DNA from: Acidimicrobiia bacterium
GTDB taxonomy: Bacteria; Actinomycetota; Acidimicrobiia; Spongiisociales; ZC4RG35
Reading direction: 5' to 3'
NCBI GenBank assembly: GCA_965214265.1
Contig: CBDCBK010000010.1
Coordinates: 537,369 to 601,368, forward strand
DNA: 64,000 bases
Of the stretch, positions 25,042-43,496 are shown one piece after another. The notes beneath the pieces are model-generated. The model was given only the letters and a program-made list of their open reading frames with translations. It was not told the origin of the DNA and did no database searches. Made by a program: the position numbers and the translations under genes. Numbering within the stretch: the first letter of the stretch is position 1; each line of letters begins with the position of its first letter.

Positions 25042-25043
25042 GC

Positions 25044-25619: not shown

Positions 25620-25621
25620 GC

Positions 25622-26219: not shown

Positions 26220-27683
26220 TTGCATGAGGTTCAGCGCCGGGCGGACCTGACAGACCGCTATGAGTCACCTTCCACCGCGGAGGAGGCTCTGGCGATCCTG
26301 GCCCGCCACCGGGAGCGAGCCCGACTGATAGCCGGAGGGACCGACTTGGTGCTGGAGATGCGCCGCGGCGTGCGCACAGGGGTTGAGATGCTGGTGGACA
26401 TCTCCCGGGTAGGAGGCCTCGACCGGATCGAACAGGACTCCGAGGGGGTCATACACTTGGGACCATTGGTGACCCATGCCGATGTCGTCGCCTCCGACCT
26501 GGCATGGAACCGGGGGCTTCCCCTGGCGCAGGCGTCGCTGGAAGTGGGCGCCCCTCCCCTCCAGGCCCGCTCCACGGTAGTGGGCAACCTGGTCACCGCC
26601 AGCCCGGCCAATGACACCATCTCCGCCCTCACCGCTCTGGACGCCTGGCTGACCATTCGCTCCGAGAGAGGCGAGCGCCGGGAGTCCCTGGCCGACTTCT
26701 ATCTCGGATTCCGTCGCACGACCCTCGCTTCGGACGAGATGGTGACCGGCGTGAGCTTCCCGGGCCTGGCCGACGGCCAATCCAGTGTGTTTGTCAAGCT
26801 AGGACTGCGGATGGCGCAGGCCATCTCGGTGGTGCATATGGCTTTGTTTCTCGAACGTGACGCTGAGGGTGTGACCAGCCAGGTTCGTATTGCCCTGGGG
26901 AGTGTGGCGCCGGTGATCGTCCGGTCGCCCGGGGCCGAGGAGGCGCTATTGGGCCGGGAGCTGGACGAGACGACCATCGCCGCCGCTGCGCGGGCGGCAG
27001 CTGAGGGAATAAGTCCCATCGATGACCTGCGAGGAACGGCGGACTACCGACGGTGGACAACCGAGGTGATGGTCCGCCGGGCTCTGACCGCCCTGGCAAA
27101 CGGCGAGGAACGGCGGACGGTTCCCCACCGGGCAGTCCATTTCGGAGCTTCCCGTCAGCCGACCTTGGCCGAGGCGCATTCCCACCGAGAGGGTGACCCG
27201 ATTGAGGCGGTGGTCAACGGGGCGCCGGTCATCACCCGGAGCGGCGCCGATCTGACCCTCCTCGATTGGCTTCGGGATGTGGCCGGCCCGGCGGCCGGTT
27301 CGCCTCTGACCGGAACCAAGGAGGGATGCGCGGAAGGAGAGTGCGGGGCGTGTCTGGTGTTTCTGGACTCCGAGGCGGCCCTCTCGTGTCTGACTCCCGC
27401 CCCCCGCGCCCACCGGGCGGTGATCGTCACCGTGGAGGGGCTGGCCGACGGCGGGCTCAATCCGGTTCAAGCCGCTTTCTGTGAAACGGGGGCTGTCCAG
27501 TGCGGCTACTGCACCCCTGGCTTTCTCATGTCGGCCACCAAGCTCCTGGAGAAGATCTCGGATCCCACTACCGAGGAGATCAGAACCGCCCTGTCCGGCA
27601 ACCTGTGCCGCTGCACCGGTTACTACCCGATCATCGAGGCGGTCTCATTAGCAGGCGGACCGGCCTCCGGAGCGCCCCGGTGA
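26220..27683 (+). CDS. xanthine dehydrogenase family: FAD-binding subunit fused to [2Fe-2S] subunit (CoxM+CoxS-like)
   Basis: The N-terminus has the FAD-binding PCMH and CO-dehydrogenase flavoprotein C-domain. The C-terminus has GCAEGECGACLV...CGYCTPGF...CRCTGY, the two 2Fe-2S clusters. Confidence 0.85.
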   Translation: MHEVQRRADLTDRYESPSTAEEALAILARHRERARLIAGGTDLVLEMRRGVRTGVEMLVDISRVGGLDRIEQDSEGVIHLGPLVTHADVVASDLAWNRGLPLAQASLEVGAPPLQARSTVVGNLVTASPANDTISALTALDAWLTIRSERGERRESLADFYLGFRRTTLASDEMVTGVSFPGLADGQSSVFVKLGLRMAQAISVVHMALFLERDAEGVTSQVRIALGSVAPVIVRSPGAEEALLGRELDETTIAAAARAAAEGISPIDDLRGTADYRRWTTEVMVRRALTALANGEERRTVPHRAVHFGASRQPTLAEAHSHREGDPIEAVVNGAPVITRSGADLTLLDWLRDVAGPAAGSPLTGTKEGCAEGECGACLVFLDSEAALSCLTPAPRAHRAVIVTVEGLADGGLNPVQAAFCETGAVQCGYCTPGFLMSATKLLEKISDPTTEEIRTALSGNLCRCTGYYPIIEAVSLAGGPASGAPR

Positions 27684-29929
27684 GCGTCGGACGGTCGTCG
27701 CCGAGACGCGACGCCCTCTCCAAGACAACGGGCGAGGCGCTCTACCCGGCGGACCTCTACCGACCCGATGCCCTTTACGCCAAGGTGGTGTTCAGTGGTC
27801 GGCCCCATGCCCGCATGGTGGCGATGGATGTCTCCGGGGCTCTGGCCGCGCCGGGAGTGGTGGAGGTGATTACTGCCGCCGACGTGCCCGTCAACGAATA
27901 CGGGTTGACCCGTTTCGATCAGGCGGTGCTGGTGGGGCCGGGAGGAACGGGCCGGAGCGCGGTTCCTGCCGAAATCAGCCGTTGGGAGGGAGATCAGATC
28001 GCGGTGGTGGTGGCCGAGACCCGCCGGGAGGCGGAGGGGGGGGCGGAGCGGCTCCGGGTCGAATGGGAGGACCTTCCCCTGGTCCCCGATGTGGAGGCGG
28101 CTCGGACCGACTCGGTGCTGGTGCATCCTGAGAACGGTTTGGGTACCAACATCTACAAGCAGCTCAAGTTTCGGGTGGGGAATATGGAAGAGGGATGGCG
28201 GGCGGCGGAGGTGGAGGTGAGCGGTACTTATGTGCTTCCGCATCAGGAGCACGCTTACCTCCAGCCGGAGGCGGCCCTGGCCTATTTCGATTCCCAGGAC
28301 CGGATCACCGTGGAGATCGCCGGGCAGTGGACCTATGAGGACCGGGAGCAGATCGCCCACGCCTTGGATGTGGATCCTGAGCGGATCAGGGTGATCTACC
28401 CGGCCATCGGTGGAGCGTTCGGAGGCCGAGAGGACATGTCACTTCAGATCGTGATGGCCCTGGCGGTCCGGAAGCTGGCCCGAAGGGGCATTCACCGGCC
28501 GGTGAGGGCAGTGTGGTCGCGTGAAGAAAGCATTGTCGGTCACCACAAGCGGCACCGGGCGGTTATCCACGCTCGCTGGGGCGCCACCCGGCAAGGCCGG
28601 CTGACCGTGGTGGAAACCGAAGGCTGGCTGGACGCCGGGGCGTACAACTACACCTCCGACAAAGTGCTGGGCAACATGCATCTGTGCTCGGTGGGGCCCT
28701 ATCGGGTGCCCAACTTGTGGGTGGACTCCCGGGCGGTATACACCCACTCGGTCCCCGGCGGCGCCTTTCGGGGCTTCGGAGCACCGCAGGGCGCCATGGC
28801 CGCCGAAGGGCAGATGAACCGCCTGGCGGCGGAACTGGGCATGGACCCGGTTGCCCTGCGCCTTCTCAACTGTTACCGGGAGGGGGATGTGGGCGCTTGG
28901 GGAACGGTCGTCCCACCGGTGGTGAGCCTTCCCGAGGTCATCGAAGCCTGCTCCGACCGGGCGGGGTGGGGAGATCCCCCGAGGTCTGATATATCCCCGT
29001 TCCCCGTGTTTCGATCCCTGCCTCCCGACTCGGGCCGCCAGCGCCGGGGACGGGGGTTCGCCTGTGGGTTGAAGAATGTTGGTTTTTCCTTCGGGTTCCC
29101 CGAGCGGTGCGAGGCCACCGTCGAGCTGTGGGGGGACGAGGAAGTGGAGCGGGTGGTGCTGTATCACGGCGGAGCAGAGGTGGGACAGGGCGCCCACACC
29201 GCCTTCGCGCAAATGGCTGCGGAGGCGGCCGGAGTGGATGTCGGGATGGTGGAGACCCAGTATTCCGACACTGCCCACACCGGCGACTCGGGATCGGCTT
29301 CCGCATCCCGGCTGACCTGGATGGCTGGCAACTCCATCCTGGGCGCTACCGAGGAGGCCCAGAAACGATGGCTGGATGGAGATCGGCCTGCTCTCGGCAG
29401 ATTTCGGTTCGTTCCCCCGCCCACCGAGACCTTCGATCCCCAGACCGGCGCGGGGGAGCTCAACTTCGCCTACGGGTGGATGGCGGAGGCGGTGGAGGTG
29501 GTGGTGGACCTGGACACCGGGCACCTGAAGGTGGAATCGGTGGTCTGCGCGGTGGATGTGGGAAGGGCTGTCAATCCGGGATTGGTGAAGGGGCAGATAG
29601 AGGGAGCGGTGGCGCAGGCCCATGGCTACGCGATCACCGAGCGGCTGCTGACAGAGGATGGGAAGATCCTCAATCCCCACCTGAGCACCTATCTGATTCC
29701 GGGGATCGGGGACATCCCCGAGCGGGTGGAGAGCGTCATCCTGGAGATCCCCGACCCGAGAGGCCCATGGGGCGTTCGGGGAATGGCGGAGATGCCCTTC
29801 ATCCCGCTGGCGCCGGCAATTTCCGCCGCCCTGTTCGACGCGGTGGGAGTATGGTTCGACGAGCTTCCTCTCACTCCCGGAGAGGTGGCAGCGGGTTTGC
29901 GATCCAAAAAAACAATGCCCTTTTGGTAA
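27680..29929 (+). CDS. xanthine dehydrogenase family molybdopterin-binding large subunit
   Basis: GEALYPADL...GFGAPQG...Ald_Xan_dh C-terminal motifs (GQGAHTAF, AVDVGRAVNP). The GTG start overlaps the upstream stop. ~750 aa. Confidence 0.85.
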   Translation: MSVGRSSPRRDALSKTTGEALYPADLYRPDALYAKVVFSGRPHARMVAMDVSGALAAPGVVEVITAADVPVNEYGLTRFDQAVLVGPGGTGRSAVPAEISRWEGDQIAVVVAETRREAEGGAERLRVEWEDLPLVPDVEAARTDSVLVHPENGLGTNIYKQLKFRVGNMEEGWRAAEVEVSGTYVLPHQEHAYLQPEAALAYFDSQDRITVEIAGQWTYEDREQIAHALDVDPERIRVIYPAIGGAFGGREDMSLQIVMALAVRKLARRGIHRPVRAVWSREESIVGHHKRHRAVIHARWGATRQGRLTVVETEGWLDAGAYNYTSDKVLGNMHLCSVGPYRVPNLWVDSRAVYTHSVPGGAFRGFGAPQGAMAAEGQMNRLAAELGMDPVALRLLNCYREGDVGAWGTVVPPVVSLPEVIEACSDRAGWGDPPRSDISPFPVFRSLPPDSGRQRRGRGFACGLKNVGFSFGFPERCEATVELWGDEEVERVVLYHGGAEVGQGAHTAFAQMAAEAAGVDVGMVETQYSDTAHTGDSGSASASRLTWMAGNSILGATEEAQKRWLDGDRPALGRFRFVPPPTETFDPQTGAGELNFAYGWMAEAVEVVVDLDTGHLKVESVVCAVDVGRAVNPGLVKGQIEGAVAQAHGYAITERLLTEDGKILNPHLSTYLIPGIGDIPERVESVILEIPDPRGPWGVRGMAEMPFIPLAPAISAALFDAVGVWFDELPLTPGEVAAGLRSKKTMPFW

Positions 29930-30041
29930 TAGAGCGGCAAGACTGGTATATATTTAGGGCTGGAGGTCGGTTAGTCTGCCGACACAAGCCACTTTTTAGT
30001 CGAGTGCCGTTGGCCCGACGAGCAAGCGGAAGGAAAACAAA

Positions 30042-31832
30042 ATGAGAAAACTGAAATTAGCCATTGCCTTGATGGCTGTCTTGGCGTTGTTGGCTGCGGC
30101 CTGCGGCGGCGATGACGGCGCAGGGGATACGGCTGCTGCGGATGCTGCTGCGGCGGCTGCCGAAGCCGAAGCCGTTGAGGCTCAGGCTGCTGCGGATACG
30201 GCTCAGGCTGCTGCGGATACGGCGCAGGCTGCTGCGGATACGGCGCAGGCCGAGTTGGAAGCCACGCAGGCCGAGTTGGAAGCTACCCGCGCTGCTGCGG
30301 CGGCCGGTGATGCGGACGCGCAGGCGATGTTGGAGGCTGCTGAGGCCGAGGCTGCCACTCAGGCTGCTGCTGCGGCGGCTGCCGAGGCTGCTGCGGAGGC
30401 TGCTGCAATGGAAGCCGATGATGCCCAGAAGGCACTGGCAGAGTCGACGATGGTGGATGCCCCCGAGGTCCGGGAAGCCGAGGTTGCTATGGGTTTCAAC
30501 GCCTGTTGCGCCGATTCGGCCTTTTGGCAGATTCCCGTCGATTTGGGCTGGTGGGATGATTTGAACATAACCATCGTCCCCAACTCGCCTACCTATCACT
30601 ACTTCACCGCCAGCGCCGACGCCATCGCCTGGTTGCGAAACGGTGAAGGCAACGTGGCCCCTGGCTGGGTGCCGGGACTGTTCGGGTCCTTGGAGACCTT
30701 TGGTCAGGAAATCCCACCGATCTTCTTCGCGGACATCTATGTCGGCTATGCCATCCTGGTAGCGCCTGACAGCGATTCGAAGACTGTTATGGAGTTCGTG
30801 GAGGAAGGTATGTCCTTCCCGGACGCGGCCTTGGCGGCCGTGCAGCAGCTGGTCGGCGAAGTTGTCCACATTCCGCCGCACAGCACACAGCAGGCCCAGT
30901 ACACGAACGCGTTCTTCGCCTATCTGCCCGAGTGGTGGGAGGCTTACCAGGAAGACATTTCCGCTTTGGACGGTGAAGGCAACCCCTTGGTGTTGCTGGG
31001 CCGCGACGGCGCGCCACTCCTGGACGATGACGGCAACGTTCAGCCGATTCGCATTACGACCAACGACTGGCGCAATTACGCCAATCCTCAGTACGTTGAT
31101 GATCCCACGATTGTGCAGCTTTCGGCTGTTCCGGGCCGGATCGAGTACGCCATGCCCTATGGCGCTCCGACCCTGGTGCAGATGATGCGCAACGGTTGGG
31201 ATCCGCTGATCAACTTCGGGATGATGATCGAGCACGACCCGTTCTCCCAGCAGACGGCCATCGCCAGCTCCACCACAGGCGGCATCGGCCTATTGGCCAA
31301 CCGCGAGTGGGTGGAGGCGAACAAGGACCTGGCCTATCGGACACTTTCTATCGGCTTTCGGACCTTCGAGTTCCTCGAGGATCCCGAGACCCAGTACCAG
31401 GGGTGGGAGATCGAGGCCAATCTCATCAACGAGAAGCGCCAGTTGAGCATGGAGCCCGAGGACATCGGAATCATCTGGACGACCATCGACCCGTCGTTCA
31501 CCTGGGAGGACCAGGAGGCCCTTTGGGACTTGAGCCTGCCCAGCTACCACCCAGAGACGGTGTTCAGGACCCAGGTGGAACTTCTGAAGGCCAAGGGAGT
31601 CCTGTCTGCGACCTATGACACGCAGGCTGGGCTCGAGCAGTTCTTGTTGGCCCAAGAGCTCTACTATGACATGAAGGGCATGCAGGACCGTTCCGACGTT
31701 CTCTTCGCTAGGACTGAGGGATTGGATCTTTCCGATAGCCAGTCCGCTTTGGTCGAGCAGGCGCAGGCCTACTATGACATCTATGACTTCTATGACGCTG
31801 AGCGCTTCTTGGAGGCTGCCCTTATTGGGTAA
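30042..31832 (+). CDS. ABC transporter substrate-binding lipoprotein (NitT/TauT, NMT1/SsuA-like) with ~130-aa Ala/Glu-rich N-terminal linker, copy 1
   Basis: MRKLKLAIALMAVLALLAAACGG is a lipobox. The low-complexity AAADTAQ/ELEATQA linker is followed by a periplasmic binding domain. Permease and ATPase genes lie downstream. Confidence 0.75.
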   Translation: MRKLKLAIALMAVLALLAAACGGDDGAGDTAAADAAAAAAEAEAVEAQAAADTAQAAADTAQAAADTAQAELEATQAELEATRAAAAAGDADAQAMLEAAEAEAATQAAAAAAAEAAAEAAAMEADDAQKALAESTMVDAPEVREAEVAMGFNACCADSAFWQIPVDLGWWDDLNITIVPNSPTYHYFTASADAIAWLRNGEGNVAPGWVPGLFGSLETFGQEIPPIFFADIYVGYAILVAPDSDSKTVMEFVEEGMSFPDAALAAVQQLVGEVVHIPPHSTQQAQYTNAFFAYLPEWWEAYQEDISALDGEGNPLVLLGRDGAPLLDDDGNVQPIRITTNDWRNYANPQYVDDPTIVQLSAVPGRIEYAMPYGAPTLVQMMRNGWDPLINFGMMIEHDPFSQQTAIASSTTGGIGLLANREWVEANKDLAYRTLSIGFRTFEFLEDPETQYQGWEIEANLINEKRQLSMEPEDIGIIWTTIDPSFTWEDQEALWDLSLPSYHPETVFRTQVELLKAKGVLSATYDTQAGLEQFLLAQELYYDMKGMQDRSDVLFARTEGLDLSDSQSALVEQAQAYYDIYDFYDAERFLEAALIG

Positions 31833-31874
31833 GCTTTCGGTAGCGATTGGCTAGTAGGTAAATAGAGATGCTCC

Positions 31875-31917
31875 GAGCGCGGGGCAGGACGGTAAAACCC
31901 GTCCTGCCCCGCGCTTC
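31875..31917 (+). terminator. GC-rich hairpin between SBP and permease genes (intra-operon attenuator/terminator)
   Basis: gagcgcggggcaggacgg-taaaac-ccgtcctgccccgcgcttc is a perfect 18-bp stem. It is conserved, with a different loop, at 37978..38017. Confidence 0.6.
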
Positions 31918-31959
31918 GGCCTGTAGGTAAGGACCGCGAGGGCGAGGAAGAGAGATACA

Positions 31960-32910
31960 GTGACCACCACAAGCACCGATGTTCTTGATGTGAGAGCGGC
32001 GGCGCATCGTGAAAAGCGGCGCCGCCAGATTGCCTATAGCATCTATCTGGTCCTCGGGTTAATGCTGTTTTTGCTGTTTTGGCAGTTGCTGGCCTCGCCT
32101 TTTTCGCCTTTTTTCTATCTCGTACCGCCGCCCATTGATGCCGTCAGGCACTTCGGGGAGAACCTGTTTTTCAGTCAGCGGATGTTGGAGCGGTATGTTC
32201 ATGCTTGTCCGGATCTGTTGGACGAGTTGGAGTTGACGGGGGGAGGGATGTTCGATCTTCCCGATCGCTGTTTTGGGTATATTCTGCATTTGGTGCGGAC
32301 TACCCGCAATATCATGATCGCAGTTACGCTGGGGACGGTGGTTGGTTTGTCGGTGGGGCTGAGCAGTTTGGTTTTCCCGAAGATCGCGGATGTGGTGACG
32401 CCGATTGCTGGTTTTTTTGGGACTACCCCGATTTTCATAGCGGCGCCTTTTTTCGTGATCTGGTTCGGGATCGAGTATCCCTTGATGACCACCATCGGGG
32501 TGGTTGTTTTCTACACCACCCTTCTCATGTATTTCTTTAGCCGCCGGGCGGCGGAGAATATACCGGTGGGGATCATTGAGTCAGCCCTCACCCTGGGGGG
32601 AGACCGCCGTACTATTTTCCGGTGGGTGTATTTGCCGGGGACGATACCCGAGATCGCGGGAGGCTTTCGTATCGCGTTGGCCGGCGCCTGGGGACTGGGT
32701 ACGCTGGTGGAGGTGCTGGGAATACAGATGGGAGGAGGATTTCTTATTCGTATGTGGAGCTTTGCGATGGGCCTTTTGGAGGGGCCGGCCGCGGTGGTTT
32801 CACTGATTCTTTTCTTCGGTGTGTTGGCTGTGGTAGTCGACGGTATCTTGGTGCTGTTTATCCGTTTCGTCACCAAGTGGTCCGAGGCCGGTCGCCGGCT
32901 GGGTTTGTAG
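31960..32910 (+). CDS. ABC transporter permease (NitT/TauT family, TauC/SsuC-like), copy 1
   Basis: Six TM helices. ESALTLGGDRRTIFRWVYLPGTIPEI matches the EAA-loop motif. Confidence 0.85.
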   Translation: MTTTSTDVLDVRAAAHREKRRRQIAYSIYLVLGLMLFLLFWQLLASPFSPFFYLVPPPIDAVRHFGENLFFSQRMLERYVHACPDLLDELELTGGGMFDLPDRCFGYILHLVRTTRNIMIAVTLGTVVGLSVGLSSLVFPKIADVVTPIAGFFGTTPIFIAAPFFVIWFGIEYPLMTTIGVVVFYTTLLMYFFSRRAAENIPVGIIESALTLGGDRRTIFRWVYLPGTIPEIAGGFRIALAGAWGLGTLVEVLGIQMGGGFLIRMWSFAMGLLEGPAAVVSLILFFGVLAVVVDGILVLFIRFVTKWSEAGRRLGL

Positions 32911-32923
32911 GCAAGGAGGAACT

Positions 32924-33703
32924 ATGTCGTCAACTGTTGTGAGCTTTGAGAATCTGTGGTGTGTGTTCGAGCACCGATCCGGGCAATTGGTGCATGCCCT
33001 TGAGGATGTCAATTTCCATGTCGATCCCGGCGAGTTTGTGTGTGTCGTGGGGAGGTCTGGGCACGGTAAGACCACTCTGCTGAGGGTGCTGGCCGGGCTT
33101 CAGCCTCCTACCGCCGGTGAGGTGAAGCTGGGCGACACTCCCGTGACGGGGCCGGGTAGCGACCGGGCCATGGTTTTTCAGCAGGACACGGTGTTTCCTT
33201 GGTTGCATGTCCGCGAGAACGTTGAATTCGGTCTCAGGGCTAACAAGCTTCCCGAGGACGAGCGGAACGAGATCACCAATTACTGGTTGTCGGCGGTGGG
33301 ACTGGAGGAGTTCGCTGACTCTTGGCCGCGGGAGCTTTCTGGGGGCATGAGAAAGCGGGTGGCCTTGGCGGCGGCGATGGCGGTGGGCTCGGATGTTGTG
33401 CTCATGGATGAGCCTTTTGGGTCTGTTGACTATTTCACGCGCCGTAATCTTCATGAGGTTCTTTTGAATTTGTGGTTTGAGACCAAGAAGACCATCTTCT
33501 TTGTCACCCATGACATTGAGGAGGCGCTGATTCTTGCTGACCGGGTGATCCTCTTGGCTGAGGGCAAGTTGGTGGACGACATCGCGGTTTCTCTCCCTCG
33601 TCCTCGTAACGAGGATGTCCGGGCCACCCCTGAGGCGGTGGGTGTGTTCAAGCTGATCTTGGCGCATCTGGGTATCACCGAGGAGGAGGCGACGAAGGTT
33701 TGA
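32924..33703 (+). CDS. ABC transporter ATP-binding protein (NitT/TauT family), copy 1
   Basis: GRSGHGKTTLLR (Walker A), LSGGMRKRVALAAA (signature), VLMDEPFGSVD (Walker B) and FVTHDIEEA (H-loop). Confidence 0.9.
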   Translation: MSSTVVSFENLWCVFEHRSGQLVHALEDVNFHVDPGEFVCVVGRSGHGKTTLLRVLAGLQPPTAGEVKLGDTPVTGPGSDRAMVFQQDTVFPWLHVRENVEFGLRANKLPEDERNEITNYWLSAVGLEEFADSWPRELSGGMRKRVALAAAMAVGSDVVLMDEPFGSVDYFTRRNLHEVLLNLWFETKKTIFFVTHDIEEALILADRVILLAEGKLVDDIAVSLPRPRNEDVRATPEAVGVFKLILAHLGITEEEATKV

Positions 33704-34920
33704 ACCAGCCTGCCCGCTTCCGAAGCCTTTATTGGATTGGATGGCTGATTTGGGCTGTCTTCCTGGCTCCTTGGTTGCTCATTCAACTGCCTGAAAGTCT
33801 TCCCTTCGTTTCCTGGACACATGGGGATGGTGTGATCAACGTCACGTGGTCGTACCTCGTTTCTTGGCCGGTTTTGTTGCTGGTCTGGCCGGTTGTGTTC
33901 CGCCCGAGTGGGGTCAAGAACCGCCTGGTCAAGATGGGACAGGGGATAGCGGCGGGGCCGGCGATGCTGTTGGCCGGTATGCGCCGCAGCCCGCTCTTCT
34001 TCATCTCCTGGGCGGTGTTGCTGCTAGCGTGGCAAGTGGCGTCTTACATTGCGCCTACGGGAATCCTCGAGCACCCCCTGGTTCCCGGATGGGACTACGT
34101 GTTCGGTGAATCCCTCTCCAGAATGTCCGGGGACTGGACCGTCCTTGGGTTTGACCTCGGGTTTGTAAATTTCCAGGTCGCGGACCTGGCGCCTTATCCC
34201 GCCTATGGCGGAGAGGGGACCGTGCCGGCCATTTTCCTCGCCATCGCTTTTCACTCGGGCGTGACCCTTTTCCGGCTGATGTGTGGCATGTCGATCGGTT
34301 TCACGCTCGGTCTCCTGACCGGATTGGCCATTCCCTATTGGCCGGCGCTGCGCCAGTCCGCTTGGGCGCCCATGAACTTTCTGCGGATGATCCCCCTCCT
34401 GGCGGCGATTCCCTGGTTGCAGTTTGCCCTGGGCTCCACCCTCTTTGGTATCACCATCTATATTGCATTCGGGGTTTGGACGACGCTGGTGGTGGCCACT
34501 ATGAACTCGGTGGCCAACGTGCCTGACCGGTACATCGAGAGCGCCCGTACCCTGGGCGCGTCCCGCCCGTGGACCTATTTCAAGGTGATAGTGCCGGGGT
34601 CGATTCCCGAGTTGCGCACCGCCATGTTGCTCGCCATGGGAGGGAGCTGGTCGCTGGCCATTGCCGCCGAGTTCCTGGGTTTCCCCACCGGGCTGGGATA
34701 TATGGCAGCGGTGGCGGTGCAGGAAACCAACACCGCCCGGCTGGTGATAGTGGCGTTTGTCGTGGCTGGTTATTCTCTCACGACCTTCTACTTGCTCAAC
34801 GAAGGATTCAAAAAAGCGGTTAGTTGGATGCCACAGCGCGCCACCGGGAAGACGGATATCAGCAGGGTGGCCGGGGCGGCCGGAGCGGGGGGCCGCGCGG
34901 AAACCCTAGAGGGCGGATAA
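33700..34920 (+). CDS. second ABC transporter permease (NitT/TauT family) with ~150-aa N-terminal extension, copy 1
   Basis: ESARTLGASRPWTYFKVIVPGSIPEL matches the EAA-loop. Multi-TM. Translationally coupled to the ATPase by a 4-bp overlap. Confidence 0.8.
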   Translation: MNQPARFRSLYWIGWLIWAVFLAPWLLIQLPESLPFVSWTHGDGVINVTWSYLVSWPVLLLVWPVVFRPSGVKNRLVKMGQGIAAGPAMLLAGMRRSPLFFISWAVLLLAWQVASYIAPTGILEHPLVPGWDYVFGESLSRMSGDWTVLGFDLGFVNFQVADLAPYPAYGGEGTVPAIFLAIAFHSGVTLFRLMCGMSIGFTLGLLTGLAIPYWPALRQSAWAPMNFLRMIPLLAAIPWLQFALGSTLFGITIYIAFGVWTTLVVATMNSVANVPDRYIESARTLGASRPWTYFKVIVPGSIPELRTAMLLAMGGSWSLAIAAEFLGFPTGLGYMAAVAVQETNTARLVIVAFVVAGYSLTTFYLLNEGFKKAVSWMPQRATGKTDISRVAGAAGAGGRAETLEGG

Positions 34921-35010
34921 GGCCAGCGCCGCGGAATCAGCGTTCGCGGTTGGGTGCCGCGTCGGGATTGACCATCCTGGTTTTTCCCTGCATGTGAGGT
35001 TGCCGGCCCG

Positions 35011-35916
35011 GTGCTGACCGGCATCGTCTTCGGGTTTATCACGGCGGTGACGCTGGGGATCAACCTTCTGCTCACTGCCGTGGTGGCCCGGCGCTTCGGC
35101 GTGCTGCGCTCCACTACCGCCACTCTGAGCCTGGCCCTCTTGGTGATGGTCGCCTGGGCACTCCTCATCGACGTGCCGTTCGAAATCACCACTGACCAAC
35201 TTGTATTACTGGCCTTCTTGGGCTCCTGTGCCGGCGGAGCGTTCCTGTGCGGCTACACGGCCCTCCGACTCGGTCCGATCTCGGTGGTGAGTCCGATCGG
35301 CGCTCTGGGGGGCGCCATGACGGTGGTCTTCTCATTCTGGTTGCTGGGGGAAAGACCCGGCGCGGTGCAGTGGGCGGGAATACCGATCGCCGTACTGGGA
35401 GCGGTATTGGCATCCGTGGTGATCAAGCGCGGAGTCAAGATTCGACTGGTCACCTGGGGGCCGGTCTTCGCCATGATCGGCGTGTTTGTGGGATCGCTCT
35501 CCAACGCCGGCCTGAAGATCCCCATCAGGGATGGACTCGACTCCAACCTGACCGTCATCACCCAGCGGGTCTACACGGTGGCTTACGTCGCTCTGGTGTT
35601 GGTGATTGTCACCCGGGTGACAGAACAGCGTCGCCGAAGGGGAGACCCCCGGTACGCGGGGAGCCACCCGGTGAAGATTACCTGGAAAACAGGATGGCTG
35701 CTGGGCGTGGTGGGAGTGATCGACGCCGTCTCCTTCATATCATTCGGATACGGTTTGGCGTATGCTCCAGCCTGGCTGATCGGGATCATCTCCCAAAGCG
35801 GACGGATAATAGCCGTGATCGGCGGGGTGATATTCTTCAAAGAACGACTTCAATCCCTGCAGTGGACAGGCATAGCCCTGGTAACGGTCGGCGTGGCCAT
35901 GTCCGTCGCCGGCTAG
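35011..35916 (+). CDS. EamA/DMT-superfamily transporter (10 TM), paralog 1
   Basis: Two EamA halves. GTG start. Preceded by an overlapping 7-codon uORF at 34994..35017. Confidence 0.8.
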   Translation: MLTGIVFGFITAVTLGINLLLTAVVARRFGVLRSTTATLSLALLVMVAWALLIDVPFEITTDQLVLLAFLGSCAGGAFLCGYTALRLGPISVVSPIGALGGAMTVVFSFWLLGERPGAVQWAGIPIAVLGAVLASVVIKRGVKIRLVTWGPVFAMIGVFVGSLSNAGLKIPIRDGLDSNLTVITQRVYTVAYVALVLVIVTRVTEQRRRRGDPRYAGSHPVKITWKTGWLLGVVGVIDAVSFISFGYGLAYAPAWLIGIISQSGRIIAVIGGVIFFKERLQSLQWTGIALVTVGVAMSVAG

Positions 35917-36147
35917 GACCGCTACCACAAAGAGGGCGAACGCTATTCCGTTCTTCCTCTTCGGGGTCCCCTCTCCTCTATGACGACCCGCGCCCCGACC
36001 ACTGCTGTTGGAAAGTTGTTATCGACGAGCTTCCTCACCCCTGGAGAGGAAGCAGCGGGTTTGCGATCCAAAAAATAATGCCCTATTGGTAACAGAACGC
36101 CAAGAGTTGAGTATATTTGAGGTTCAAGCGAGCGGAAGGAAAACAAA

Positions 36148-37937
36148 ATGAGAAAACTGAAATTAGCCATTGCCTTGATGGCTGTCTTGGCGTTGTTGGC
36201 TGCGGCCTGCGGCGGCGACGACGGCGCAGAGGATACGGCTGCTGCGGACGCGGCGGCTGCTCAGGCTGCTGCGGACGCGGCGGCTGCTCAGGCTGCTGCG
36301 GACACGGCTGAGGCTGCTGCTGCTGAGGCGGCTGCTGAGGCTGCTGCGGCGCAGGCCGAGTTGGAAACCGCGCAGGCCGAGTTGGAAGCTACCCGCGCTG
36401 CTGCTGCGGCCGGTGATGCGGACGCGCAGGCGATGTTGGAGGCTGCTGAGGCCGAGGCTGCCGCTCAAGCTGAGGCTGCTGCCATGGCTGAAGAGGCTGC
36501 CGAAGAGGCTGCCATGACAGCCGCAGACGCCCAGAAGGCACTGGCAGAGTCGATGATGGTGGATGCCCCCGGATCCGGGAACTCGAAGTGGCTATGGGTA
36601 TAGGTTTCTGTTGCGCCGACTTTGCCTATTGGCAGATTCCCTTGGAATTGGACTGGTATGACGAATTGGGTATAACCATCGTCCCCAATACGCCTACTTA
36701 TTGGTATCTCACCAATAGCACCGAGACCAATGCCAAGTTGCAGCGTCAAGAGCTTCACATGGCCAATGGCTGGGTGCCCTCACTGTTCGTAGCTCTGGAG
36801 ACCTTCGCTCAGGAGATTCCAGTGATTCACTTCGCGGATATCTTTATCGGCTATGCGGTCCTGGTATCGCCTGACAGCGATTCGAAGACTGCCCTGGAGT
36901 TCATGGAGGAAGGGATGTCCTTCTCCGAGGCGGCCACGGCGGCCGTGGAGCAGTTGGTTGGCGAGGATATCTACATCACGCCGGGTAGCACTACACAGGC
37001 CCAGTACGCGAACGCGTTCTTCGCCTACCTGCCCGAGTGGTGGGAGGATGTGCAGGAAGACATTCCCGTAATTGACGAGGAAGGCAACCCCTTGGTGTTG
37101 CTGGGCCGCGATGGCCAGCCACTCCTGGATGATGACGGCAACGTTCAGCCGATTCGCATTACGACCAACGACTGGCGCAATTACTCCACTCCGAAGTACG
37201 TCGAGGACCCCATTATCGTGGAGCTTTCGGCTGTTCCGGGCCGGATCGATTACGCCATGCCCTTCCAGGCTCCAACCCTGGTGCAGATGATTCGTAACGG
37301 CTGGGATCCGCTGATCAACTTCGCGATGATGTTCGAGCACGACGCGTTCTCCCAGCAGACGGGCATCGCCAGCTCCACCACAGGCGGCACCGGCCTGATT
37401 GCCAACCGCGAGTGGGTGGAGGCGAACAAGGACGCGGTCTACCGGATACTCTCCGTTGCCCACCGGACCTTCGCTTTCCTCGATGATCCCGAGACCCAGC
37501 GAATTGGGTGGGAGATTGAGGCCAATCTCATCAACGAGAAGCGCCTGCTGAGCATGGAGCCCGAGGACATCGGAGTCATATGGGAACAGATCGACCCCTC
37601 CTTTAACTGGGAGGACCAAGAGGCGCTTTGGGACTTGAGCCTGCCCAGCTACCACCCAGAGACGGTGTTCAGGAACCAGGTCGAGGAGCGTAAGGCCAAG
37701 GGAGAGTTGTCTGCGACCTATGACACGCAGGCAGGGCTCGAGAAGTTCTTGTTGGCCCAGGAGCTCTATTACGACATGAAGGGCATGCAGGAACGTTCCG
37801 ACGCTCTCTTCGCCACGGCTGAGGGATTGGATCTTTCCGATAGCCAGGCCGCTTTGGTGGCACAGGCCCGCCACTGGTACGACATCTATAACTTCTACGA
37901 CGCTGAGCGCTTCTTGGAGGCTGCCCTTATTGGGTAA
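36148..37937 (+). pseudogene. ABC substrate-binding lipoprotein, copy 2, disrupted by a 1-bp deletion (~36570) between linker and binding domain
   Basis: It is split into ORFs 36148..36603 and 36588..37937 in different frames. Alignment with copy 1 (ccccgaggtccgggaagccgaggttgctatgggt versus ccccggatccgggaactcgaagtggctatgggt) shows a single missing base. The 1790-bp length is not divisible by 3. Confidence 0.65.
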
Positions 37938-37977
37938 GCTTTCGGTAGCGATTGGCTAGTAGGTAAAAGAGAAGCTC

Positions 37978-38017
37978 CGAGCGCGGGGCAGGACGGGTTA
38001 TCGTCCTGCCCCGCGCT
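37978..38017 (+). terminator. GC-rich hairpin (copy-2 counterpart of the intra-operon attenuator)
   Basis: gcgcggggcaggacg-ggttat-cgtcctgccccgcgc. The stem is identical and the loop differs. Confidence 0.55.
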
Positions 38018-38062
38018 TCGGCCTGATAGGTAAGGACCGCGAGGGCGAGGAAGAGAGATACA

Positions 38063-39013
38063 GTGACCACCACAAGCACCGATGTTCTTGATGTGAGAGC
38101 GGCGGCGCACCGCGCTAGACGGCGAAGCAAGATTGCCTATAGCATCTATCTGGTCGTCGGGTTAATGCTGTTTTTGCTGATTTGGCAGTTGATCGCCTCG
38201 CCTTTTTCGCCCCTTTTCTATCTCATACCGCCGCCCATTGATGCCGTCAGGCACTTCGGGGAGAACCTGTTTTTCAGTCAGCGGATGTTGGAGCGGTATG
38301 TTCATGCTTGTCCGGATCTGTTGGACGAGTTGGAGTTGACGGGGGGAAGGATGTTCGATCTTCCCGATTACTGTTTTGGGTATATTCTGCATTTGGTGCG
38401 GACTACCCGCAATATCATGATCGCAGTTACGCTGGGGACGGTGGTTGGTTTGTCGGTGGGGCTGAGCAGTTTGGTTTTCCCGAAGATCGCGGATGTGGTG
38501 ACGCCGATTGCTGGTTTTTTTGGGACTACCCCGATTTTCATAGCGGCGCCTTTTTTCGTGATCTGGTTCGGGATCGAGTATCCCTTGATGACCACCGTCG
38601 GGGTGGTTGTTTTCTACACCACCCTTCTCATGTATTTCTTTAGCCGCCGGGCGGCGGAGAATATACCGGTGGGGATCATTGAGTCAGCCCTCACCCTGGG
38701 GGGAGACCGCCGTACTATTTTCCGGTGGGTGTATTTGCCGGGGACGATACCCGAGATCGCGGGAGGCTTTCGTATCGCGTTGGCCGGCGCCTGGGGACTG
38801 GGTACGCTGGTGGAGGTGCTGGGACCTCAGATGGGAGGAGGATTTCTTATTCGTATGTGGAGCTTTGCGATGGGCCTTTTGGAGGGGCCGGCCGCGGTGG
38901 TTTCACTGATTCTTTTCTTCGGTGTGTTGGCTGTGGTAGTCGACGGTATCTTGGTGCTGTTTATCCGTTTCGTCACCAAGTGGTCCGAGGCCGGTCGCCG
39001 GCTGGGTTTGTAG
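38063..39013 (+). CDS. ABC transporter permease (NitT/TauT), copy 2 (~97% aa identity to copy 1)
   Basis: Near-identical to 31960..32910 except for N-terminal residues. Confidence 0.85.
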   Translation: MTTTSTDVLDVRAAAHRARRRSKIAYSIYLVVGLMLFLLIWQLIASPFSPLFYLIPPPIDAVRHFGENLFFSQRMLERYVHACPDLLDELELTGGRMFDLPDYCFGYILHLVRTTRNIMIAVTLGTVVGLSVGLSSLVFPKIADVVTPIAGFFGTTPIFIAAPFFVIWFGIEYPLMTTVGVVVFYTTLLMYFFSRRAAENIPVGIIESALTLGGDRRTIFRWVYLPGTIPEIAGGFRIALAGAWGLGTLVEVLGPQMGGGFLIRMWSFAMGLLEGPAAVVSLILFFGVLAVVVDGILVLFIRFVTKWSEAGRRLGL

Positions 39014-39026
39014 GCAAGGAGGAACT

Positions 39027-39806
39027 ATGTCGTCAACTGTTGTGAGCTTTGAGAATCTGTGGTGTGTGTTCGAGCACCGATCCGGGCAATTGGTGCATGC
39101 CCTTGAGGATGTCAATTTCCATGTCGATCCCGGCGAGTTTGTGTGTGTCGTGGGGAGGTCTGGGCACGGTAAGACCACTCTGCTGAGGGTGCTGGCCGGG
39201 CTTCAGCCTCCTACCGCCGGTGAGGTGAAGCTGGGCGACACCCCGGTGACGGGGCCGGGTAGCGACCGGGCCATGGTTTTTCAGCAGGACACGGTGTTTC
39301 CTTGGTTGCATGTCCGCGAGAACGTTGAATTCGGTCTCAGGGCCAACAAGCTTCCCGAGGACGAGCGGAACGAGATCACCAATTACTGGTTGTCGGCGGT
39401 GGGACTGGAGGAGTTCGCTGACTCTTGGCCGCGGGAGCTTTCTGGGGGCATGAGAAAGCGGGTGGCTCTGGCGGCGGCGATGGCGGTGGGCTCGGATGTT
39501 GTGCTCATGGATGAGCCTTTTGGGTCTGTTGACTATTTCACGCGCCGTAATCTTCATGAGGTTCTTTTGAATTTGTGGTTTGAGACCAAGAAGACCATCT
39601 TTTTTGTCACCCATGACATTGAGGAGGCGCTGATTCTTGCTGACCGGGTGATCCTCTTGGCTGAGGGCAAGTTGGTGGACGACATCGCGGTTTCTCTCCC
39701 TCGTCCTCGTAACGAGGATGTCCGGGCCACCCCTGAGGCGGTGGGTGTGTTCAAGCTGATCTTGGCGCATCTGGGTATCACCGAGGAGGAGGCGACGAAG
39801 GTTTGA
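39027..39806 (+). CDS. ABC transporter ATP-binding protein (NitT/TauT), copy 2 (100% aa identity to copy 1)
   Basis: Identical 259-aa translation. Only a few synonymous nucleotide differences. Confidence 0.9.
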   Translation: MSSTVVSFENLWCVFEHRSGQLVHALEDVNFHVDPGEFVCVVGRSGHGKTTLLRVLAGLQPPTAGEVKLGDTPVTGPGSDRAMVFQQDTVFPWLHVRENVEFGLRANKLPEDERNEITNYWLSAVGLEEFADSWPRELSGGMRKRVALAAAMAVGSDVVLMDEPFGSVDYFTRRNLHEVLLNLWFETKKTIFFVTHDIEEALILADRVILLAEGKLVDDIAVSLPRPRNEDVRATPEAVGVFKLILAHLGITEEEATKV

Positions 39807-41023
39807 ACCAGCCTGCCCTCTTCCGAAGCCTTTATTGGATTGGATGGCTGATCTGGGTCGTCTTCCTGGCTCCTTGGTTGCTCATTCAACTGCCTGAAAG
39901 CCTTCCCTTCGTTTCCTGGACATATAGCGATGGTGTGATCAACGTCACGTGGTCGATCCTTGTTTCTTGGCTGGTTTTGTTGCTGGTCTGGCCGGTTGTG
40001 TTCCGCCCGAGTGGGGTCAAGAACCGCCTGGTCAAGATGGGACAGGGGATAGCGGCGGGGCCGCCGATGCTGTTGGCCGGTATGCGCCGCAGCCCGCTCT
40101 TCTTCGTCTCCTGGGTGGTGTTGCTGGCGGCGTGGCAACTGGGGTCTTATTTGGCGCCTCCGGGAGCCCTTGAGCACCCCCTGGTTCCCGGATGGGACTA
40201 CGTGTTCGGTGAGACCTTCTTCAGAATGTCCGGGGACTGGAGCGTCCGCGGGTTTGACCTTGAGTTTGTGGTCCTCGATGTCACGGGACTAGCGCCCCTT
40301 CCCATCTATGGCGGGGAGGCGACTTGGCCGGCCGTGTTCCTCGCCATCGCTTTCCACTCCGGCACGACCCTTTTCCGGCTGATGTGTGGCATGGTGGTCG
40401 GTATGACCCTCGGTCTCCTGACCGGTCTGGCCATTCCCTATTGGCCGCCGCTGCGCAAGTCCGCTTGGGCGCCCATGAACTTTCTGCGGATGATCCCCCT
40501 CCTGGCGGCGATTCCCTGGTTGCAGTTTGCCGTGGGCTCCACCCTCTTTGGTATCACCATCTATATTGCATTCGGGGTGTGGACGACGATGGTGGTGGCA
40601 ACTATGAACTCGGTGGCCAACGTGCCTGACCGGTACATCGAGAGCGCCCGTACCCTGGGCGCGTCCCGGCCGTGGACCTATTACAAGGTGATAGTGCCGG
40701 GGTCGATTCCCGAGTTGCGCACCGCCATGTTGCTCTCCATGGGAGGGAGCTGGTCGCTGGCCATTGCCGCCGAGTTCCTGGGTTTCCCCACCGGGCTGGG
40801 ATATATGGCCAACGTGGCGGTGCAGGAAACCAACACCGCCCGGCTGGTGATAGTGGCGTTCATTGTGGCTTTTTATTCTCTCACGACCTTCTACTTGCTC
40901 AACGAAGGATTCAAAAAGGCGGTTAGTTGGATGCCACAGCGCGCCACCGGGAAGACGGATATCAGCAGGGTGGCCGGGGCGGCCGGAGCGGGGGGCCGCG
41001 CGGAAACCCTAGAGGGCGGATAA
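39803..41023 (+). CDS. second ABC permease, copy 2 (~92% aa identity)
   Basis: Co-linear with 33700..34920. Confidence 0.8.
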   Translation: MNQPALFRSLYWIGWLIWVVFLAPWLLIQLPESLPFVSWTYSDGVINVTWSILVSWLVLLLVWPVVFRPSGVKNRLVKMGQGIAAGPPMLLAGMRRSPLFFVSWVVLLAAWQLGSYLAPPGALEHPLVPGWDYVFGETFFRMSGDWSVRGFDLEFVVLDVTGLAPLPIYGGEATWPAVFLAIAFHSGTTLFRLMCGMVVGMTLGLLTGLAIPYWPPLRKSAWAPMNFLRMIPLLAAIPWLQFAVGSTLFGITIYIAFGVWTTMVVATMNSVANVPDRYIESARTLGASRPWTYYKVIVPGSIPELRTAMLLSMGGSWSLAIAAEFLGFPTGLGYMANVAVQETNTARLVIVAFIVAFYSLTTFYLLNEGFKKAVSWMPQRATGKTDISRVAGAAGAGGRAETLEGG

Positions 41024-41113
41024 GGCCAGCGCCGCGGAATCAGCGTTCGCGGTTGGGTGCCGCGTCGGGATTGACCATCCTGGTTTTTCCCTGCATATGA
41101 AGCTGTCAACGCG

Positions 41114-42010
41114 GTGCTGACCGGCATCGTCTTCGGGTTTATCACGGCGGTGACGCTGGGGATCAACCGTCTGCTCACTGCAGTGGTGGCCCGGCGCTTC
41201 GGCGTGCTGCGCTCCGCTGCCACCACTCTGAGCCTGGCCCTCTTGGTGATGGTCATCTGGGCAATCCTCATCGACGTGCCGGTCGAAATGACCACTGACC
41301 AACTTGTTTTACTGGCCTTCTTGGGCTCCTGCGTCGGCGGGTCCTTTCTGGGCGGCTACACGGCCCTCCGACTCGGTCCGATCTCGGTGGTGACTCCGAT
41401 CGGCGCTCTGGGGGGCGCCATGACGGTGATCTACGCATTCTGGTTGCTGGGGGAAAGACCCGGCGCGGTGCAGTGGGCGGGAATACCGATCGCCGTACTG
41501 GGAGCGGTATTGGCATCCGTGGTGATCAAGCGCGGAGTCAAAATTCGACTGGTCACCTGGGGGCCGGCCTTCGCCATGATCGGCGTGTTTGTGGGATCGC
41601 TCTCCAACGCCGGCCTGAAGATCCCCATCAGGGATGGACTCGACTCCAACCTGACCGTCATCACCCAGCGGGTCTTCACGGTGGCCTTCGTCGCTCTGGT
41701 GTTGGTGATTGTCTCCCGGGTGACAGAACGGCGTCGACGAACGGGAGATGGTCCCCCGTATCCGGTGAGGATTACCTGGAGGACAGGATGGCTGCTGGGC
41801 GTGGTGGGAGTGATCGACGGCGTCTCCTTTATATCATTCGGATACGGTTTGGCGTATGCTCCGGCCTGGCTGATCGGGATCATCTCCCAAAGCGGACGGG
41901 TGATAGCCGTGATCGGCGGGGTGATATTCTTCAAAGAACGACTCCACCACCTGCAGTGGGCAGGCATAGCCCTGATAACGGTCGGTGTGGCCATGTCCGT
42001 CGTCGGCTAG
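41114..42010 (+). CDS. EamA/DMT transporter, paralog 2
   Basis: GTG start overlapped by the uORF ATGAAGCTGTCAACGCGGTGCTGA (41097..41120). Confidence 0.8.
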   Translation: MLTGIVFGFITAVTLGINRLLTAVVARRFGVLRSAATTLSLALLVMVIWAILIDVPVEMTTDQLVLLAFLGSCVGGSFLGGYTALRLGPISVVTPIGALGGAMTVIYAFWLLGERPGAVQWAGIPIAVLGAVLASVVIKRGVKIRLVTWGPAFAMIGVFVGSLSNAGLKIPIRDGLDSNLTVITQRVFTVAFVALVLVIVSRVTERRRRTGDGPPYPVRITWRTGWLLGVVGVIDGVSFISFGYGLAYAPAWLIGIISQSGRVIAVIGGVIFFKERLHHLQWAGIALITVGVAMSVVG

Positions 42011-42029
42011 GATCGCCGCCCGAGGAGGT

Positions 42030-42246
42030 ACTCGTTGAGGGATTCAAGAAGGTCGTTGGTCGGATGCCACAGTGCACGGGAAAGTGAACAGATGGCAGCA
42101 GGGTGGCCGCGGCGGAAGGAGCAGGAGGCCGCGGTGAAACTCTCGACGACGGATAGGGCCTCGGCCGCGGAATCGGCGTTCGCGGTCGAGTGGCCAATCG
42201 GGATTAGTCAGCCTGGCTTTTCCCTGTATGTGAAGCTGTCAACTAG
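42030..42246 (+). pseudogene. relic of permease-2 3' end plus EamA leader (junction of an extra [permease-tail+EamA] sub-duplication)
   Basis: ctcgttgagggattcaagaaggtcgttggtcggatgccacag resembles LLNEGFKKAVSWMPQ. Frame not maintained. Confidence 0.6.
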
Positions 42247-43152
42247 GTGTTGACCGGCATCATCTTCGGGTTCATCACCGCGGTGACGCTGGGGATCAAC
42301 AGCCTGCTCACTGCTGTGGTGGTACGGCGTTTCGGCGTGCTGCGCTCTGTCTCCGTTACTGTGACTCTGGCTTGCTTCTTGATGATGGCCTGGGCGGCGC
42401 TGATCGGTGTGCGAGTCGAGATGAATGCCGACCACCTGATCCTGCTGGTCCTGTTGGGCTCCTGTGTCGGCGGGTCCTTTCTGTGCGGTTACATGGCTCT
42501 CCGGGTCGGTCCGATCTCGGTGGTGAGTCCGATCGGCGCTCTGGGGGGCGCCATGACGGTGATCTACGCATTCTGGTTGCTGGGGGAAAGACCCGGCGCG
42601 GTGCAGTGGGCGGGGATACCGATCGCCGTTCTGGGAGCGGTGTTGGCATCCGTGGTGATCAAGCGGGGGACCAAGATTCGACTGGTCACTTTGGGGCCGG
42701 TCTTTGCCTTGACCGGCGTGCTGGTGGGATCGATCTCCAACGCCGGCCTGAAGATCCCCATAAGGGATGGGGTGGATTCCAACGTGACCGTCATCACCCA
42801 ACGGGTCTTCACGGTGGCTGTCATCCTCTTGGTGTTTGTGATCTTCTCCAGGGTGACAGAACAACGACGACGAAGGGGAGATCCCCGGTACGAGGGGAGC
42901 CACCCGGTGAAGATCACCTGGCGGACGGGATGGCTGCTGGGTTTGGTGGGACTGATCGACGGTGCCTCCTTCATATCCTTCGGATATGCTCTGGCGCATG
43001 CACCTGTCTGGCTGATCTCGATTATCTCCCAAACCGGACGGGTTATAGCCGTGATCGGCGGGGTGATGTTCTTCAACGAACGACTCCACAGCCTGCAGTG
43101 GACAGGCATAGCTCTGATATGCGTTGGGGTGGTGATGTCCATCGTCGGTTAG
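42247..43152 (+). CDS. EamA/DMT transporter, paralog 3
   Basis: ~75-80% identical to paralogs 1 and 2. uORF GTGAAGCTGTCAACTAGGTGTTGA at 42230..42253. Confidence 0.8.
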   Translation: MLTGIIFGFITAVTLGINSLLTAVVVRRFGVLRSVSVTVTLACFLMMAWAALIGVRVEMNADHLILLVLLGSCVGGSFLCGYMALRVGPISVVSPIGALGGAMTVIYAFWLLGERPGAVQWAGIPIAVLGAVLASVVIKRGTKIRLVTLGPVFALTGVLVGSISNAGLKIPIRDGVDSNVTVITQRVFTVAVILLVFVIFSRVTEQRRRRGDPRYEGSHPVKITWRTGWLLGLVGLIDGASFISFGYALAHAPVWLISIISQTGRVIAVIGGVMFFNERLHSLQWTGIALICVGVVMSIVG

Positions 43153-43183
43153 CACTGCCGCTAGCCGTTGGTTATGAAGAGCT

Positions 43184-43300: not shown

Positions 43301-43496
43301 CTGACCTCTTGCACGCCCTGTTCCGGGCTGGGCGGACGCGTGTTGGACCCGTGGCAAGGTGGTAGCGGGTCACTGCCGCTAGGCAGTGGGCTTGCCTGAG
43401 GGCCCGGCAGGGAAGTGGTTTTTTACGCCTTTCCGCGGTGATTGGCAACAGAACCCGCCTCCGTGGGCTGGGGCCAGAGCTGGGTGGAGCCGGTGC

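Follow-up and report, generated by a model that had tools for sequence, protein, structure and literature searches.

What does a head-to-tail transporter array next to a xanthine dehydrogenase operon record: a recent amplification that is still unstable, or an old duplication that has been kept? We addressed this question in a 64,000-nucleotide (nt) stretch of contig CBDCBK010000010.1 (assembly GCA_965214265.1, Acidimicrobiia bacterium; hereafter the window), where a ~6.1-kb unit stands twice in tandem downstream of the xanthine dehydrogenase genes xdhAB. Taken as a whole, the evidence very probably reflects an old duplication with diverged substrate-binding proteins (SBPs), a transporter core homogenised by gene conversion and occasional remodelling by crossover. 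On this account, a cassette ordered SBP-permease-ATPase-permease-EamA, which would encode a NitT/TauT-type ATP-binding cassette (ABC) importer and a DMT permease, was tandemly duplicated in the ancestor of a clade of sponge- and coral-associated Acidimicrobiia, and later nested duplications and deletions left two full units, an extra EamA gene and an orphan pair of SBP and EamA genes. All three SBPs have diverged in their ligand-binding domains, which persist as positional orthologues under purifying selection and presumably differ in substrate specificity. The permease-1/ATPase core, the signal-peptide and linker segment, and parts of permease 2 and EamA have been homogenised repeatedly by intragenomic gene conversion. 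Unequal crossovers also arise now and then within the homogenised tract, and in some species they have reduced or reshaped the array.

When the window was compared with itself by BLASTN, 30021-35922 and 36127-42016 aligned over 5915 columns with a bit score of 8443. Identity was 91.8%, the two copies differing at ~480 positions, or 8% of sites. Gene content, identified with Pfam and NCBIfam, is the same in both units: a 596-aa SBP lipoprotein, a 316-aa BPD_transp_1 permease, a 259-aa ABC_tran ATPase, a 406-aa BPD_transp_1 permease and a 301-aa EamA protein, all on the forward strand. Unit 1 comprises SBP1 (30042-31832), permease 1 (31960-32910), the ATPase (32924-33703), permease 2 (33700-34920) and EamA1 (35011-35916); unit 2 comprises SBP2 (36148-37937), permease 1 (38063-39013), the ATPase (39027-39806), permease 2 (39803-41023) and EamA2 (41114-42010). 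A nested sub-unit follows at 42037-43161 (+), which matches both 34801-35922 and 40904-42019 at 82% and consists of a relic of the last ~40 permease-2 codons (~42037-42156) and EamA3 (42247-43152). A preliminary description of the locus had proposed just such a nested head-to-tail repeat, including the extra permease-2 tail and EamA, and its coordinates agree with ours to within ~10 nt. It had overlooked the mosaic identity between the units, a third, degraded unit (44161-47107), a hydrolase remnant (43497-43901, reverse strand) and a frameshift in SBP2.

The array is a true local tandem duplication, with its left breakpoint within the 3' end of xdhB, the gene for the molybdopterin subunit (27500-29929, +). 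The end of xdhB and the sequence downstream (29856-29955) matched 36022-36118 at 84%, placing the breakpoint at 29856, ~74 nt before the stop codon, and making 29856-29929 (+) the source of a relic at the junction. The relic (36022-36118, +) carries the last ~24 xdhB codons up to a TAA at 36090-36092, plus a promoter-like GTAACA-N17-TATATT (36089-36117), and the novel junction at 36021/36022 fuses the spacer downstream of EamA1 to xdhB codon ~-24. Frame 2 of 36017-36095 reads VIDELPHPWRGSSGFAIQKIMPYW and a stop; the relic itself (36017-36092) ends in DELPHPWRGSSGFAIQKIMPYW and a stop within one frame, as had been described before, and the intact XdhB C-terminus ends in FDELPLTPGEVAAGLRSKKTMPFW and a stop, the relic differing from it at the DNA level by one 2-nt and one 1-nt deletion. 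The proposal of an xdhB relic ahead of unit 2, with a breakpoint in the dehydrogenase gene, is borne out in other genomes also. The same relic is present in OZ253443, it is present minus a ~55-nt internal deletion in CBDFJY, and its last ~35 nt are recognisable upstream of the genes of SBP2 type in OZ242000, RHO1_bin_22, RHO1_bin_21 and Plut_88890. Because the relic or its remnant is common to several species, these sequences argue that the junction is a single, old event.

A scan of species-representative genomes recovered the SBP in 10 metagenome-assembled genomes (MAGs), 6 of them titled Acidimicrobiia and 4 only 'bacterium'; the bin names suggest that several come from sponges and a coral. 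In all ten, xdhAB is followed by an array of the same genes, and hydrolase paralogues lie after the array wherever the fetched locus reaches, with asd and ask further on in OZ253443 and CBDFJY. OZ253443 is the closest relative (98% amino acid identity in XdhB), and the order unit 1, unit 2, EamA3, SBP3, EamA4 is common to the window, OZ253443 and CBDFJY. In neighbour-joining (NJ) trees the SBPs form clades by position (S1, S2 and S3, and one further type), each with several species, and S1, S2 and S3 are positional orthologues across 7-10 species. The synonymous divergence (dS) between S1 and S2 is 0.34-0.44 (dN/dS 0.38-0.46; 0.15-0.32 among SBP orthologues), which is 4-5 times that of the species split between the window and OZ253443 (0.06 for xdhB to 0.11 for asd). 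Because the SBPs group by position across species, the duplication is ancient and not a fresh amplification. Overall relatedness along the locus is itself uneven: in the flanks (27000-30000 and 51500-54000) identity is ~97% with OZ253443 and 84-88% with CBDFJY, and most of the array (30500-50500) is 92-97% identical to CBDFJY, with unit 1 nearer to CBDFJY than to OZ253443. This mosaic suggests that the array has been exchanged between lineages by recombination.

Identity between units 1 and 2 varies along their length. It is 69-89% in the SBP binding domain, 80-87% in the middle of permease 2 and 84-99% in EamA. Within permease 2, a predicted loop (residues ~124-172) is the segment most diverged between the units. 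In a homogenised tract of permease 1 and the ATPase gene, from 32150 to 33850 (+; partner 38253-39953), identity reaches 98.8%: only 21 of 1701 nt differ, the longest stretch without a difference measures 414 nt (32725-33138), and the two ATPase proteins are 100% identical. The ATPase copies cluster by genome in NJ trees, not by position. We then counted sites in quartets of the window against OZ253443 or CBDFJY, scoring each as supporting orthology or concerted evolution. The SBP domain gave 154-178 orthology sites and 7-10 concerted sites, the ATPase 0 and 48-60, permease 1 12-18 and 35-38, and the signal peptide with the linker 0-2 and 9-36; permease 2 and EamA are mosaics. EamA2 is partly converted towards EamA1 in the window, with a dS of 0.08 compared with 0.24-0.34 in relatives.

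Synonymous sites in the ATPase gene give the same picture. Within genomes dS is 0.037 in the window, 0.000 in CBDFJY (a 1071-nt identical run), 0.108 in OZ253443 and 0.081 in OZ242000, as against 0.26-1.2 between genomes. In RHO1_bin_21 the two copies have not been homogenised (dS 0.71) and provide a baseline for the age of the duplication. Low divergence inside four genomes (0-0.11) beside much higher divergence from one genome to another amounts to recurrent interlocus gene conversion limited to part of the operon. An independent duplication in each lineage is excluded because the SBP domains form positional clades and several species have the xdhB relic in front of S2.

Conversion has been described as a cause of concerted evolution among duplicated genes in bacteria, for instance for tufA/tufB and for the genes catalogued by Wang & Chen 2018 (PMC6053082), whose systematic survey found recurrent concerted evolution of protein-coding genes in prokaryotes to be rare; the words 'ABC' and 'transporter' are absent from its list of 26 genes (PMC6053082). 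Literature searches on this locus and on conversion in ABC operons found nothing specific. As in the tufA/tufB type, the paralogues of the array are closer within than between genomes, at synonymous sites too, and this is seen repeatedly, in several lineages that descend from an old duplication. The array differs from such cases in that conversion covers the ATPase, most of permease 1 and patches elsewhere, with the adjacent SBP domain escaping, and in that the copies are in tandem, 6.1 kb apart. The processes are known ones, well resolved here, and such recurrent concerted evolution is rarely documented in prokaryotes (PMC6053082). The locus offers a clean natural example of a duplicated operon under two regimes, with a receptor free to diverge and an engine kept uniform by conversion.

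One relative, CBDBPZ, carries a single full unit that is a recombinant of units 1 and 2, with the switch at the 3' end of the ATPase gene (L003, CBDBPZ010000002.1, ~13100-13200). Unit 1 of RHO1_bin_22 matches its 5' part (S1, permease 1 and most of the ATPase gene) at 92-99%. From the 3' end of the ATPase gene onwards the identity to that unit is only 72-83%, against 90-97% to the S2-type unit of Plut_88890. By its sequence this unit is the product expected of an unequal crossover inside the homogenised tract, by which the array collapsed. Other species differ in the numbers of EamA and orphan SBP genes, and carry permease fragments.

The 596-aa SBP had no direct match in Pfam or NCBIfam, nor in the PDB, where it was searched both as a single sequence and as a shallow profile. 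Its close family comprises 172 matches, none with a Pfam domain on record, and the best 120 of the 172 are all at least 73% identical to the query; where organisms are named they are MAGs labelled Acidimicrobiia, Actinomycetia or 'bacterium', and identifiable origins are sponges and a coral. An exhaustive profile search reached 234 cluster representatives, including ~450-aa relatives that pass the Pfam NMT1/NMT1_2 models, and the extended family profile matched CmpA (2i48) at E=2e-6, with NrtC, SsuA, ThiY and THI5 weaker (E 0.005-0.2). A first AlphaFold run on a shallow alignment of 17 sequences, all at least 74% identical, gave a predicted local distance difference test (pLDDT) score of 42 and was discarded; AlphaFold2 on a 44-sequence alignment that included distant relatives gave a model with pLDDT 91.9. 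Foldseek placed SsuA, TauA, PqqT, ThiY and NrtA (E 8e-9 to 1e-6), together with CmpC, at the top for this model, with probability 1.0 and TM scores (target) of 0.5-0.67 against SsuA, TauA, ThiY and NrtA. The predicted fold and the transitive homology through distant relatives together identify the SBP as a divergent binding protein of the SsuA/TauA/NrtA (NMT1) class with an extra C-terminal helical domain; in SBP1 this follows a lipoprotein signal, an Ala-rich linker and the NMT1/SsuA-class binding domain. The label 'SBP', given earlier from sequence inspection, is upheld by fold and distant homology although there is no direct Pfam match. The family constitutes an unannotated subfamily of SsuA/NrtA-class binding proteins.

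The remaining genes place the importer by similarity. The ATPase matched PF00005 (2.6e-30) and, in NCBIfam, SaoA best (8.8e-66), then TauB, NrtCD (NtrCD) and SsuB, all under their equivalog cut-offs. Both permeases matched PF00528, with SaoP, TauC, SsuC and NtrB as best NCBIfam models, all well under cut-offs (SaoP, TauC and SsuC for permease 1 of unit 1). EamA proteins, assigned to the DMT family through Pfam, matched PF00892 in two stretches in 4/4 copies, and transmembrane-like segments were seen. On these matches the ATPase and permeases are NitT/TauT-like. NitT/TauT-family ABC importers include SsuABC, TauABC, NrtABCD/CmpABCD, ThiXYZ and Sao. The array has in common with them an ATPase of ~260 aa, BPD_transp_1 permeases and an SBP of the SsuA/TauA/NrtA fold. 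It differs in scoring far under the equivalog cut-offs, in having two distinct permease genes per unit, one of 406 aa with an N-terminal extension, and in its SBP, which lacks a direct Pfam match and has a ~170-aa helical C-terminal extension and the Ala-rich linker. With xdhAB, a pair of deaminase genes and one for a PALP enzyme as neighbours, the putative substrates would be nitrogen heterocycles or further small molecules from the host, and an SBP subfamily beside purine-catabolism genes is a candidate for host-derived nutrient uptake.

A putative promoter and leader lie upstream of SBP1 (29921-30041, +), with counterparts at 36089-36147 and 44161-44257. The promoter, TTGGTA-N18-TATATA, has its -35 element overlapping the last xdhB codons, and the leader, of ~100 nt and presumed function, has a first hairpin (~29965-29985), an inner hairpin and a stretch rich in U that is predicted to base-pair with GGAAGG, the Shine-Dalgarno (SD) sequence. 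All species have the promoter-like site and the leader ahead of each full SBP gene, and hairpin 1 shows compensatory changes (3 pairs). The window, OZ253443 and CBDFJY have lost 57 nt from unit 2, including the hairpin and the anti-SD stretch, and with them the presumed regulatory leader of SBP2. Rfam gave no match for the leader and returned only one tRNA elsewhere. Because the promoter would overlap the end of xdhB, only a copy carrying that piece would be expressed independently, which could explain why the breakpoint lies inside xdhB and why the relic is still recognisable.

The alternative that survives best concerns unit 2, which could be decaying: in this strain SBP2 would be a genuine pseudogene, with the second transporter either on its way to being lost or dependent on SBP1 or SBP3. 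The SBP2 frame is indeed split by a 1-nt deletion at 36570/36571, and the unit-2 leader is deleted in this clade. We compared the window with an ENA contig (ctg565233_11x_l, ERZ25068966, 742 kb) that is 99.94% identical over 20.9 kb, with 12 substitutions and one indel, and has the same copy number, gene order and junction. At the site of the deletion the orthologues read CCCCCGAGATCC (GAG), the ENA contig CCCCCGGGATCC (GGG, with an intact gene of 596 aa) and the window CCCCCGGATCC (GG). The difference is thus one of run length, GG against GGG; the S2 orthologues are intact, and window S2 compared with them has a dN/dS of 0.26-0.32, like the other SBPs and with no sign of relaxation. The frameshift is probably a run-length error or a very recent polymorphism, and decay of unit 2 is an unlikely explanation.

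The same pair of sequences offers a possible view of conversion at short range. Eight of the differences fall within 40798-41161, in permease 2 and EamA of unit 2; at 7/8 the window has the base of its own unit 1, and at several of the 8 the ENA allele matches the unit-2 orthologues. This segment is either a fresh tract converted from unit 1 to unit 2 or consensus cross-talk between paralogues, an artefact that is conceivable here. SBP1 differs by one residue between the two sequences, and the other differences are at 30261, 34908, 36959 and 39602.

The preliminary description had read the repeat as an amplification of a usually unstable kind, probably variable in copy number between strains and perhaps marking a locus under dosage selection. 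The head-to-tail arrangement, the non-homologous junction inside xdhB, identical tracts of 414 nt that could recombine and the differing copy number between species would all fit a recent, unstable amplification kept for transporter dosage, and yet we consider this reading very improbable. Overall divergence is 8%, the SBP domains are 69-89% identical, the S1-S2 dS is several times that of the species split, the paralogues are positional orthologues across species, and copy number is the same in the 99.94%-identical contig. Copy-number variability is real between species, with a crossover collapse in CBDBPZ, but was not seen between these near-identical strains; likewise, unequal crossing-over has remodelled the array, but the duplication is not recent. 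A comparison with sister genomes, from which a single-copy ancestral state had been expected, showed that copy number varies but that the same xdh-linked array is present in 10 relatives. Gene duplication-amplification under dosage selection is described for Salmonella and E. coli. The array is like it in being head-to-tail, in having a junction formed without long homology and in later RecA-type unequal exchange between copies, and is unlike it in that its copies are old, diverged, fixed across species and constant between near-identical strains. Because of conversion, within-genome identity can be a misleading guide when used by itself. In practice, comparison with relatives should establish the age of any tandem repeat found in a long-read MAG before the term amplification is applied to it.

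With an ancient duplication and recurrent conversion as the favoured explanation, near-identity of the core could still be attributed to strong purifying selection on a recent core duplication, given that the ATPase proteins are 94-96% conserved in amino acids across all species. Such selection is a highly implausible source of the pattern, since the signal is carried by synonymous sites (dS of 0-0.11 within and 0.26-1.2 between genomes, and 0.71 within RHO1_bin_21), the ATPase has no orthology site against 48-60 concerted ones, and the topology is reversed in the SBP and permease-2 segments that flank the core in these units. Equally implausible is a second operon acquired horizontally and inserted beside a resident paralogue: species that are otherwise diverged have unusually similar array genes, which shows that the locus does undergo DNA exchange, but the copying of the xdhB 3' end and its downstream promoter ahead of unit 2 is explained only by a local duplication that included the end of xdhB. 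That the repeat is an assembly artefact, mis-joined or falsely expanded, would fit the low nominal coverage (the near-identical ENA contig is named ..._11x) and had been raised with the first description, but has a negligible probability given ~480 differences between copies, a junction and relic that recur in OZ253443 and the ENA contig, and the same architecture in independent assemblies of other species.

Several points weigh against the account of an old, conversion-homogenised duplication. The NJ trees are built from short alignments without bootstrap. Different specificities of the SBPs are deduced from divergence and long retention alone. The promoter is a consensus match of a kind that a sigma-70 scan found 3 times in the region against 5.2 expected by chance, and conservation is its sole support. 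The strain-level comparison consists of one near-identical contig, whose name gives a nominal 11x coverage, and at ~11x consensus cross-talk between paralogues is possible. If the SBP2 frameshift is real, unit 2 has no SBP of its own in this strain.

The degraded third unit consists of a 5' part (44161-45811, +), with a leader-like region (44161-44257) and the orphan SBP3 (44207-45811), and a 3' part (45855-46996, +). In the 3' part, 50 nt left from the end of the ATPase gene (45855-45904) are followed by a permease-2 tail relic, which starts at 45910, and by EamA4 (46100-46996). These remains show that unit 3 was formerly a full unit; among the window, OZ253443 and CBDFJY, an intact permease 2 stands between S3 and EamA4 in CBDFJY only. 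SBP3 has ACG at 44258-44260 where S1 and S2 have ATG, and its nearest in-frame canonical start is a TTG at 44207. ACG is also found at this site in OZ253443, CBDFJY, CBDBPZ, RHO3_bin_31 and Plut_88890, with the SD sequence kept 6-7 nt upstream, and in two species S3 has no in-frame canonical start ahead of the signal-peptide core. The dN/dS of S3 is 0.20-0.24, indicating purifying selection. All S3-type orphan SBP genes share the ACG, which may serve as a non-canonical start that has been conserved.

In Salmonella and E. coli, HisJ and ArgT (LAO) are binding proteins that arose by tandem duplication and use a single translocator, HisQMP2. The array likewise has duplicated, diverged SBP genes at one locus, and the orphan SBP3, without a translocator of its own, would need that of unit 1 or unit 2; it differs in having two copies of the translocator as well, which conversion keeps alike. 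A more specific model, which we offer tentatively and which is rather doubtful as a whole, would have separate receptors use a shared engine. Conversion would be tolerated only in the ATPase and transmembrane core. Two SBP-permease pairings would stay insulated from each other because selection acts against conversion in three places: the SBP domain, the N-terminus of permease 1 and the loop of permease 2 (~124-172). A leader RNA of an undescribed kind, sequestering the SD sequence, would control expression; it is conserved ahead of all full SBP genes, unit 2 has lost it in this clade, and the orphan SBP3 has the conserved non-canonical ACG start in its stead.

Between EamA3 and unit 3 lies the remnant of an alpha/beta-hydrolase gene (43497-43901, reverse strand; 134 aa), which has an in-frame internal deletion of residues ~119-258. 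At this position in the array the hydrolase is intact in CBDFJY, a remnant in the window and absent from OZ253443. Five alpha/beta-hydrolase paralogues stand in tandem on the right-hand side of the array (47202-52086, reverse strand; 279-280 aa, 75-88% nt identity), and the remnant is a sixth copy of them; relatives have 3-6 copies.

On the other side of the array, two tandem genes of cytidine/guanine-deaminase type (25038-26215, +; 84% nt identity) lie directly upstream of xdhA, and both are found in all relatives. The xdhB product also matched a model for selenium-dependent xanthine dehydrogenases, under its cut-off. The genes selA and selB, for selenocysteine incorporation, are located ~9 kb upstream of xdh (14476-17627, +), and the only tRNA in the window is a tRNA-Pro (21931-22007, reverse strand), not tRNA-Sec. 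Further upstream, the window encodes a 1219-aa RCC1-repeat protein with an SLH domain (7260-10919, reverse strand), the gene of which contains internal DNA repeats that are 65-70% identical (8637-10030), and a separate short tandem repeat of ~100 nt (86-90% identical) occupies 11366-11639.

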